Source of the DNA: Escherichia coli | GTDB lineage: Bacteria > Pseudomonadota > Gammaproteobacteria > Enterobacterales > Enterobacteriaceae | Assembly: GCF_050920415.1 (NCBI RefSeq) | Contig: NZ_CP169309.1 | Direction: 5' to 3' (one strand) | DNA length: 64,000 nucleotides | Shown here: piece after piece, positions 13,133 through 13,981 of the stretch | Numbering within the stretch: position 1 is the first letter of the stretch | Layout: each line of letters starts with the position of its first letter | Program-made: the position numbers and the translations under genes | The notes under the pieces: model-generated | The model's input: the letters and a program-made list of their open reading frames with translations, nothing else | Databases searched by the model: none | What the model was told of the DNA's origin: nothing

Positions 13133-13981
13133 ATGGCGACATACCTTATTGGCGACGTTCATGGTTGTTACGATGAACTGATCGCATTGCTGCATAAAGT
13201 AGAATTTACCCCTGGGAAAGATACCCTCTGGCTAACAGGCGATCTGGTTGCGCGCGGCCCAGGTTCGCTGGATGTTCTGCGCTATGTGAAATCCTTAGGC
13301 GACAGCGTACGTCTGGTGCTGGGCAATCACGATCTGCATCTGCTGGCGGTATTTGCCGGGATCAGCCGCAATAAACCGAAAGATCGCCTGACACCGCTGC
13401 TGGAAGCGCCTGACGCCGACGAGCTGCTTAACTGGCTGCGTCGCCAGCCTTTGCTGCAAATCGACGAAGAGAAAAAGCTGGTGATGGCCCACGCAGGGAT
13501 CACGCCGCAGTGGGATCTGCAGACCGCCAAAGAGTGCGCGCGCGATGTAGAAGCGGTGCTGTCGAGTGACTCCTATCCCTTCTTTCTTGATGCCATGTAC
13601 GGCGATATGCCAAATAACTGGTCACCGGAATTGCGGGGGCTGGGAAGACTGCGGTTTATCACCAACGCCTTTACCCGTATGCGTTTTTGCTTCCCGAACG
13701 GTCAACTGGATATGTACAGCAAAGAATCGCCGGAAGAGGCCCCTGCCCCACTGAAACCGTGGTTTGCGATTCCTGGCCCTGTCGCTGAAGAATACAGCAT
13801 CGCCTTTGGTCACTGGGCATCGCTGGAAGGCAAAGGTACGCCGGAAGGTATTTACGCGCTGGATACTGGCTGCTGCTGGGGTGGTACATTAACCTGCCTG
13901 CGCTGGGAAGATAAACAGTATTTTGTCCAGCCGTCGAACCGGCATAAAGATATGGGTGAGGGAGAGGCGGCCGCGTCTTAA
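13133..13981 (+). CDS. apaH: Bis(5'-nucleosyl)-tetraphosphatase (symmetrical) ApaH
   Basis: 282-aa ORF with metallophosphatase motifs ([22 protein letters not shown]). Confidence 0.95.

Follow-up and report, generated by a model that had tools for sequence, protein, structure and literature searches.

The junction at which the stop codons of apaH and ccdB overlap in this stretch of Escherichia coli DNA is, very probably, the left edge of a ccdO157-type islet that was brought in by one ancient illegitimate recombination and is now present in ~37% of E. coli. We infer this mechanism since a target-site duplication, terminal repeats and an integrase are all absent. The junction itself is already known: RefSeq annotates it, the islet has been published, and gene overlaps of this kind form a standard class. 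Its position defines the boundaries of the islet to within a few bases, and it is a tidy case of a selfish toxin-antitoxin cassette fitted to a core gene without a single nucleotide to spare. In the strain analysed here the toxin gene ccdB is dead, so that annotation should not treat the toxin-antitoxin system as active.

Overlap of the apaH and ccdB stop codons

The window, by which we mean the whole 64,000-nucleotide stretch that was analysed, carries apaH, ccdB, ccdA and folA in this order, which is the arrangement that identifies the ccdO157 islet. The features of the locus are as follows.

13133..13981, plus strand: apaH (Ap4A hydrolase), 282 codons; from the ORF list, Pfam Metallophos and PGAP (WP_000257195.1)
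13978..13981: TTAA palindrome with both stop codons, a 4-nt tail-to-tail overlap of the coding sequences and the left junction of the islet
13978..14292, minus strand: ccdB pseudogene of the ccdO157 type, 104-codon frame; from translation, Pfam, PGAP and allele comparison
14182..14184, minus strand: premature TGA at ccdB codon 37 (tca on the plus strand); O157:H7 has taa on the plus strand, i.e. TTA for Leu37
14295..14528, minus strand: ccdA antitoxin, intact, 77 aa; from Pfam and PGAP, the protein being WP_000125566.1, identical in O157:H7
14529..14588, minus strand: putative ccd promoter/operator, ~60 nt upstream of ccdA, derived from the insert; function predicted from the sequence
14589..14613: folA-proximal flank, common to the ccd and REP alleles with small indels (GCCGGAATTCTAATATACAAAC versus GCCGTAAATTCTATACAAAA); from alignments
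14614..15093, minus strand: folA (dihydrofolate reductase), convergent with apaH, on the same strand as ccdAB and just upstream of it

The initial annotation had stated that the two stop codons overlap on opposite strands and that the ccd module adjoins apaH with no spacer. The sequence, the reading frames and PGAP confirmed the overlap, and the spacer is indeed zero, as TTAA at 13978-13981 holds both stops. The stretch 13976-13989 reads tct taa atcccgtc. ApaH ends in ...GEGEAAAS, with the final serine encoded by TCT and followed by the stop TAA at 13979-13981 on the plus strand. On the minus strand, the ccdB frame opens with an ATG at 14292 and ends in ...GAC GGG ATT TAA, where the TAA occupies 13980-13978; nucleotides 13979-13980 are common to both stop triplets. 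Since apaH ends in TCT-TAA, the palindrome TTAA provides a TAA on both strands and the stops overlap by two nucleotides. TCT-TAA is found in ccd-less and in DUF4291-cassette genomes too, so the TAA triplet on the minus strand is there whether ccd is present or not. The ccd-specific trait is the last sense codon of ccdB, ATT (13983-13981), which directly adjoins the shared stop.

In a near-identical genome, which has 5 base differences from the window in 50 kb, PGAP places apaH at 13133-13981 and CcdB at 13978-14292, the same coordinates as in the window, and the PGAP annotation of O157:H7 shows the same 4-nt overlap of apaH and ccdB. The Pfam matches of the four genes had E values of 1.1e-29 (CcdB), 1.3e-26 (CcdA), 3e-60 (DHFR) and 8.5e-17 (Metallophos). 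Three convergent gene pairs lie in the 50 kb round the junction, with spacers of 16, -4 and 116 nt. A 16-nt imperfect palindrome, AGAGGCGGCCGCGTCT, which includes a NotI site, was also noticed at 13963-13978, right before the apaH stop. O157:H7 has GCGGTCGCG at this position, so that the palindrome is not conserved and is probably incidental.

Alleles of the folA-apaH interval in E. coli

Passages in four reviews (PMC3184786, PMC7167474, PMC7232551, PMC2654758, citing Mine et al. 2009) place ccdO157 between folA and apaH in a plastic locus, give the interval as 77 bp in K-12 with a REP sequence in about half of strains, and describe the ccdO157 system as decaying within the species. In our census of 5426 complete E. 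coli genomes, the following three alleles cover 5421.

State A: 77-nt REP spacer, ApaH of 280 aa, 2857 genomes (53%)
State B: ccdAB, ApaH of 282 aa, about 2021-2025 genomes (37%)
State C: DUF4291 gene, an unannotated gene and a diverged ccdA remnant, ApaH of 282 aa, 539 genomes (10%)

The spacer of state A holds a true REP element, a GC-rich imperfect palindrome GCCGGATAAG...CATCCGGC that forms a hairpin on both strands (fold z = -2.2 and -2.6); this element is absent from the window. State C was observed in strains 23CRST013 (L005:1532-2957) and STEC17-183 (L010:2782-4207), at the site corresponding to 13982-14613 of the window. Here the DUF4291 gene and an unannotated gene of 149-155 aa lie on the apaH strand, and are followed by a truncated remnant of the CcdA family. 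The identity of this remnant to the CcdA of the window is only 48%, so that it derives from another, distinct ccd lineage, the toxin of which has been replaced.

The alleles differ within apaH as well. A 6-nt indel in its 3' part (window 13955-13966), GGTGAG-GGAGAG versus GGCGAA, makes the difference between an ApaH of 282 aa and one of 280 aa. The 282-codon form, which is ancestral in the Enterobacteriaceae, is found in tight linkage with the ccd and DUF4291 alleles, and the 280-codon form goes with the REP allele.

Boundaries of the islet

The initial annotation had proposed an alignment of this junction with ccd-less genomes, and when carried out it defined both ends of the islet. The three alleles can be aligned without a break as far as ...GCG TCT TAA (GCGTCTTAA) and diverge right after it, the apaH TAA being followed by A-CACAGCC in state A, by A-TCCCGTC in state B and by C-GCTTTAC in state C. 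TTAA is common to all of them and the next A (13982) is common to state A too, so the left crossover lies within TTAA(A), 13978-13982. As the crossover could have fallen anywhere within these bases, the stop triplet may come from donor or host DNA alike. On the other side, states A and B become alignable again ~24 nt from the folA stop, and this is the right boundary of the replaced segment. The insert measures ~606 nt; it holds ~60 nt from upstream of ccdA, the whole of ccdA, and all sense codons of ccdB.

We found neither a target-site duplication nor terminal inverted repeats round the islet, where there were only short repeats at chance level and none at both ends. No recombinase gene was found in the apaH-folA interval, and an Rfam scan of 12700-15400 gave no match. 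The islet does not have the characteristics of a transposon, an insertion sequence or an integron cassette, an attC-like hairpin included. This agrees with PMC7167474, according to which the ways in which toxin-antitoxin systems integrate have yet to be elucidated. The suggestion in the initial annotation that the junction constrains the mode of insertion is valid only in part, since an ambiguous TTAA(A) of 4-5 nt with no duplication and no repeats says little about it.

Ancestral state of the interval and age of the islet

In a sample of 80 Enterobacteriaceae species, apaH has ~282 codons nearly everywhere (281-284 in the sampled loci) and ApaH commonly ends in ...GEGEAVAS; the 280-codon form occurs in this sample only in state A E. 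coli and in Escherichia sp. E1V33. The usual apaH-folA spacer of the family is 34-50 nt long and has a perfect GC-rich hairpin between the stops, with z = -4.2 to -5.7 (L031, L035, L056, L068 and others); this hairpin presumably serves as a terminator in both directions. In Salmonella, Citrobacter and the REP state of E. coli, the place of the single hairpin is taken by one to three REP-like palindromes.

Since the outgroups combine a hairpin spacer with 282 codons, the K-12-type interval is not an empty site. This apparently 'empty' interval is a derived REP allele with a 6-nt apaH deletion, and not the target site of the islet. The initial annotation, which had the module inserted into the short K-12-type interval, has to be corrected on this point. 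By the same comparison, the ccd allele kept the ancestral apaH length and lost the hairpin. We also considered the REP-state spacer as ancestral, with the K-12 post-stop sequence GCCTGATA homologous to the apaH end of Salmonella and Citrobacter. This was rejected since the stop of apaH falls at an equivalent position (282 codons), and since GCCTGATAAG itself resembles the arm of a REP.

At the same position, Superficieibacter, Pseudocitrobacter, Phytobacter and a MAG carry on the folA strand a gene of ~211 aa with a PRiA4_ORF3 domain (PF07929; loci L029, L036, L037, L080 and L081), and L036 has in addition a DUF4291 gene and a gene of 218 aa. Such unrelated cargo in other genera marks the apaH-folA terminator spacer as a recurrent insertion hotspot across the Enterobacteriaceae. 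With its three common E. coli alleles, this hotspot bears on how toxin-antitoxin islets integrate.

The 35-nt sequence across the junction (13973-14007) is identical in 2015 ccd-positive genomes among the 5426, and its first 18 nt are identical also in the E. albertii type strain and in an Escherichia representative labelled E. coli (L011, L012). Nucleotide identity between E. albertii and the window is 94.3% for ccdB, 96.5% for ccdA, 90.9% for apaH and 93.8% for folA. The ccd genes are about as diverged from E. albertii as their flanks, and this fits one old event, or else co-transfer of ccd with the flanks, which could give rise to the same near-equal divergence. The allele may also have been formed elsewhere and spread by homologous recombination.

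We propose that the ancestral terminator-hairpin spacer was replaced by a minimal cassette of ~606 nt, in which a promoter region of ~60 nt would have been followed by ccdA and by ccdB down to the very last sense codon. The zero spacer would then be the limit allowed by purifying selection. A shift of the junction to the left would truncate apaH, and a shift to the right would remove C-terminal residues of CcdB. In CcdB of the F plasmid, the C-terminal residues are required for toxicity. A statement on W99 of CcdB, in one passage of PMC7232551, bears on this role of the C-terminus. Taken together, the zero-spacer form can be explained by one ancestral junction that is held by coding constraint on both sides.

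It is conceivable that the zero spacer was instead reached by secondary trimming, the module having brought along a 3' UTR and a terminator, and bacterial deletion bias having eroded the spacer until the two ORFs touched. Plasmid relatives do have 75-285 nt of non-coding sequence after ccdB, the islet is stripped to a minimum on both sides, and with TTAA already in apaH the zero-spacer end state would come at no cost. The junction, however, is identical in every ccd-positive genome examined, E. albertii included, and no intermediate with a spacer survives; moreover, a single crossover and erosion would leave the same sequence. We regard such trimming as unlikely, while giving it some weight.

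Transcription and termination at the junction

A zero-spacer junction leaves neither apaH nor ccdAB with an intergenic terminator. According to the initial annotation, an independent ccdB terminator has no space here. Taken literally this is correct, as there is no intergenic sequence and a consensus scan of the minus strand detected no site resembling an intrinsic terminator, either at the junction or past it. It is, however, a general known trait of convergent overlaps, and transcripts may still end inside the coding sequence of the partner (PMC2174442) or by the action of Rho. The following region was considered in this respect.

13780..13977, minus strand: antisense-apaH tract, a candidate Rho-utilisation region; predicted from composition and folding

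This tract is C-rich and G-poor over ~200 nt, with C/G of 1.3-1.75, and only 7% of minus-strand windows have a C/G of at least 1.5. The antisense-apaH RNA downstream of the ccdB stop forms no stable fold (z = +1.6). By these heuristics of composition and folding, Rho-dependent termination of ccdAB in the antisense-apaH tract is plausible, and the ccdAB transcripts would most likely end by Rho within this C-rich and unstructured sequence. On the plus strand past apaH, stable hairpins (z = -2.9) are predicted inside antisense ccdB, at 13982-14120. They might serve as the 3' end of apaH transcripts, but they have no U tract and their conservation is not strict.

A different reading of the junction would couple the two genes through antisense RNA. 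Read-through RNA from surA-pdxA-rsmA-apaG-apaH would damp ccdB and ccdA, or read-through from ccdAB would modulate apaH and Ap4A. An intrinsic terminator is missing between the genes on either strand, the ccd state has neither the ancestral bidirectional hairpin nor a REP, and the junction is invariant in about 2000 genomes, all of which would suit this idea. The invariance, though, is explained by a single origin and coding constraint. Further, ccdB decays freely by several independent mutations, contrary to a selected regulatory role for the toxin, and the stable antisense-ccdB hairpins together with possible Rho action would limit read-through. Regulatory coupling is hence very improbable. 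We place equally little confidence in its wider form, whereby loss of the hairpin and the zero spacer make convergent read-through obligatory, so that apaH RNA acts as a brake on ccd or ccdAB modulates apaH/Ap4A, or whereby the hairpin/REP is a structure-targeted landing site for islets. Were it true, a toxin-antitoxin system of the protein type (type II) would gain a further layer at the RNA level, and the hairpin/REP would be seen to capture small islets repeatedly (two ccd lineages, DUF4291, PRiA4_ORF3) across the Enterobacteriaceae.

The ccdB pseudogene and the intact ccdA

Apart from the nonsense codon, the ccdB of the window differs from the intact alleles of O157:H7 and MY504 by F15L, R45H and D60Y. 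With codon 37 masked, the frame matches the Pfam family CcdB (PF01845) with 103 bits over profile positions 1-101 of 101. Owing to the TGA at codon 37, the full toxin ORF of the CcdB family, with the C-terminal residues that gyrase poisoning requires, is not present, and the truncated product has 36 aa. PGAP flags ccdB in the near-identical genome as a pseudogene with an 'internal stop', and we found no support for recoding of this TGA. The window copy is therefore a ccdB pseudogene and not a functional member of the CcdB family. The codon-37 TGA allele is rare, the 61-nt haplotype round the nonsense codon being found in exact form in 2 of the 5426 complete E. coli genomes.

The interruption of ccdB had escaped the initial annotation. 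With a TGA at codon 37, the shared TAA is the end of the ancestral frame and is not reached by ribosomes in this strain. The shared stop is a fossil of that frame, vestigial here after the change of L37 to TGA.

The antitoxin gene is in a different condition. Its stop is separated from the ccdB start by 2 nt, its ORF is uninterrupted, and it belongs to the CcdA family by a match to PF07362 (E = 1.3e-26) over profile positions 2-71 of 71. The putative operator upstream contains a direct repeat, TGCACGGAT/TGCACGTAT, at 14564-14584 and an AGGAG Shine-Dalgarno sequence; a simple sigma-70 scan found no site in 14529..14588. As the toxin frame is broken, the window does not hold a functional type II toxin-antitoxin system.

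Two of the sampled ccd-positive genomes (O157:H7 and MY504) have an intact ccdB. In the other sampled genomes ccdB is broken in four ways, by L37*, C83*, G95* and a 13-nt deletion, and the junction is unchanged. A dead ccdB together with an intact ccdA represents the usual toxin-first decay of a ccdO157-type system. According to the annotation of the near-identical genome, the window holds other decaying genes at 4925-5881, 29548-30137 and 46900-49049. In these regions, a transposase fragment lies beside espY1, which encodes a T3SS effector; caiE has a frameshift; and a fimbrial chaperone-usher operon is interrupted by frameshifts as well as by an internal stop.

The initial annotation had named a different ccdB 3' end that leaves a spacer as the finding that would speak against the overlap. 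Such an end exists in the trivial sense that translation now stops at 14182-14184, 200 nt from the junction, but the C-termini are conserved family-wide and PGAP has the same ends. That the overlap is an accident of longest-ORF choice, with the true 3' end of ccdB or apaH lying elsewhere, has next to no likelihood and is effectively refuted by these C-termini: the interrupted ccdB frame is indeed split into pieces in the longest-ORF list, and ccdB of strain R7 ends 26 nt before apaH through G95*, but ApaH ends in ...A(A/V)AS* across the Enterobacteriaceae, CcdB ends in ...LDGI* with 104 codons in plasmid relatives and a full-length Pfam match, and the PGAP ends were obtained independently.

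Comparison with known systems

The ccdO157 locus of E. coli O157:H7 is reportedly a chromosomal type II toxin-antitoxin system, work that is attributed to Wilbaux et al. 2007 and Mine et al. 2009. Its locus and gene order are those of the window, and its ccdB overlaps apaH by the same 4 nt. At the nucleotide level, ccdB of the window is 97.5% and ccdA 99.6% identical to an O157:H7 genome, with the same accession for the CcdA protein. In contrast to ccdO157 of O157:H7, the toxin of the window has the TGA at codon 37 and three missense changes, and its antitoxin is an orphan.

CcdB of the F plasmid is a gyrase poison and CcdA is its antitoxin. F-plasmid ccdAB has the same Pfam families (PF01845 and PF07362), the same antitoxin-toxin order and the same C-terminal GI as the window, although the identity of the two CcdB proteins is only ~36%. 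Unlike F-plasmid ccdAB, the module of the window lies in the chromosome, outside any plasmid context, without a 3' UTR of its own and with an inactivated toxin. Closer relatives are found on plasmids of Hafnia alvei and K. aerogenes, with 71-74% identity. Plasmid CcdB relatives of 60-74% identity all have 104 codons, end in LDGI/V* and show the 2-nt spacing between ccdA and ccdB. From this length and ending it follows that the frame of the window ends at the native C-terminus and that no 3' UTR of its own was kept. In a search for a plasmid donor there was no near-identical plasmid ccd, the best match having 74% protein identity. One E. coli plasmid record, CP054241.1 (834 kb), gave a 98% ccdB protein match. 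It carries apaH too, and was set aside since its appearance is that of a piece of chromosome or a wrongly assigned replicon, and not of a plasmid copy of ccdO157.

The 77-nt REP spacer of K-12 occupies the same interval, starts after the same GCGTCTTAA(A) and has the same ~24-nt folA-proximal flank. It differs from the ccd allele in having a REP hairpin without genes, and an apaH of 280 codons that is 6 nt shorter.

Finally, the junction can be placed among convergent gene overlaps in general. [quoted passage not shown] The same study counted 58 convergent overlaps in E. coli, and noted that in such pairs the terminators must fall inside the coding sequence of the partner (PMC2174442). The junction of the window belongs to this class, as it likewise has a TTAA with both stops. 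Unlike overlaps that arise by drift of stop codons between resident genes, it resulted from foreign DNA set beside a core gene, and one of its two partners is a pseudogene.
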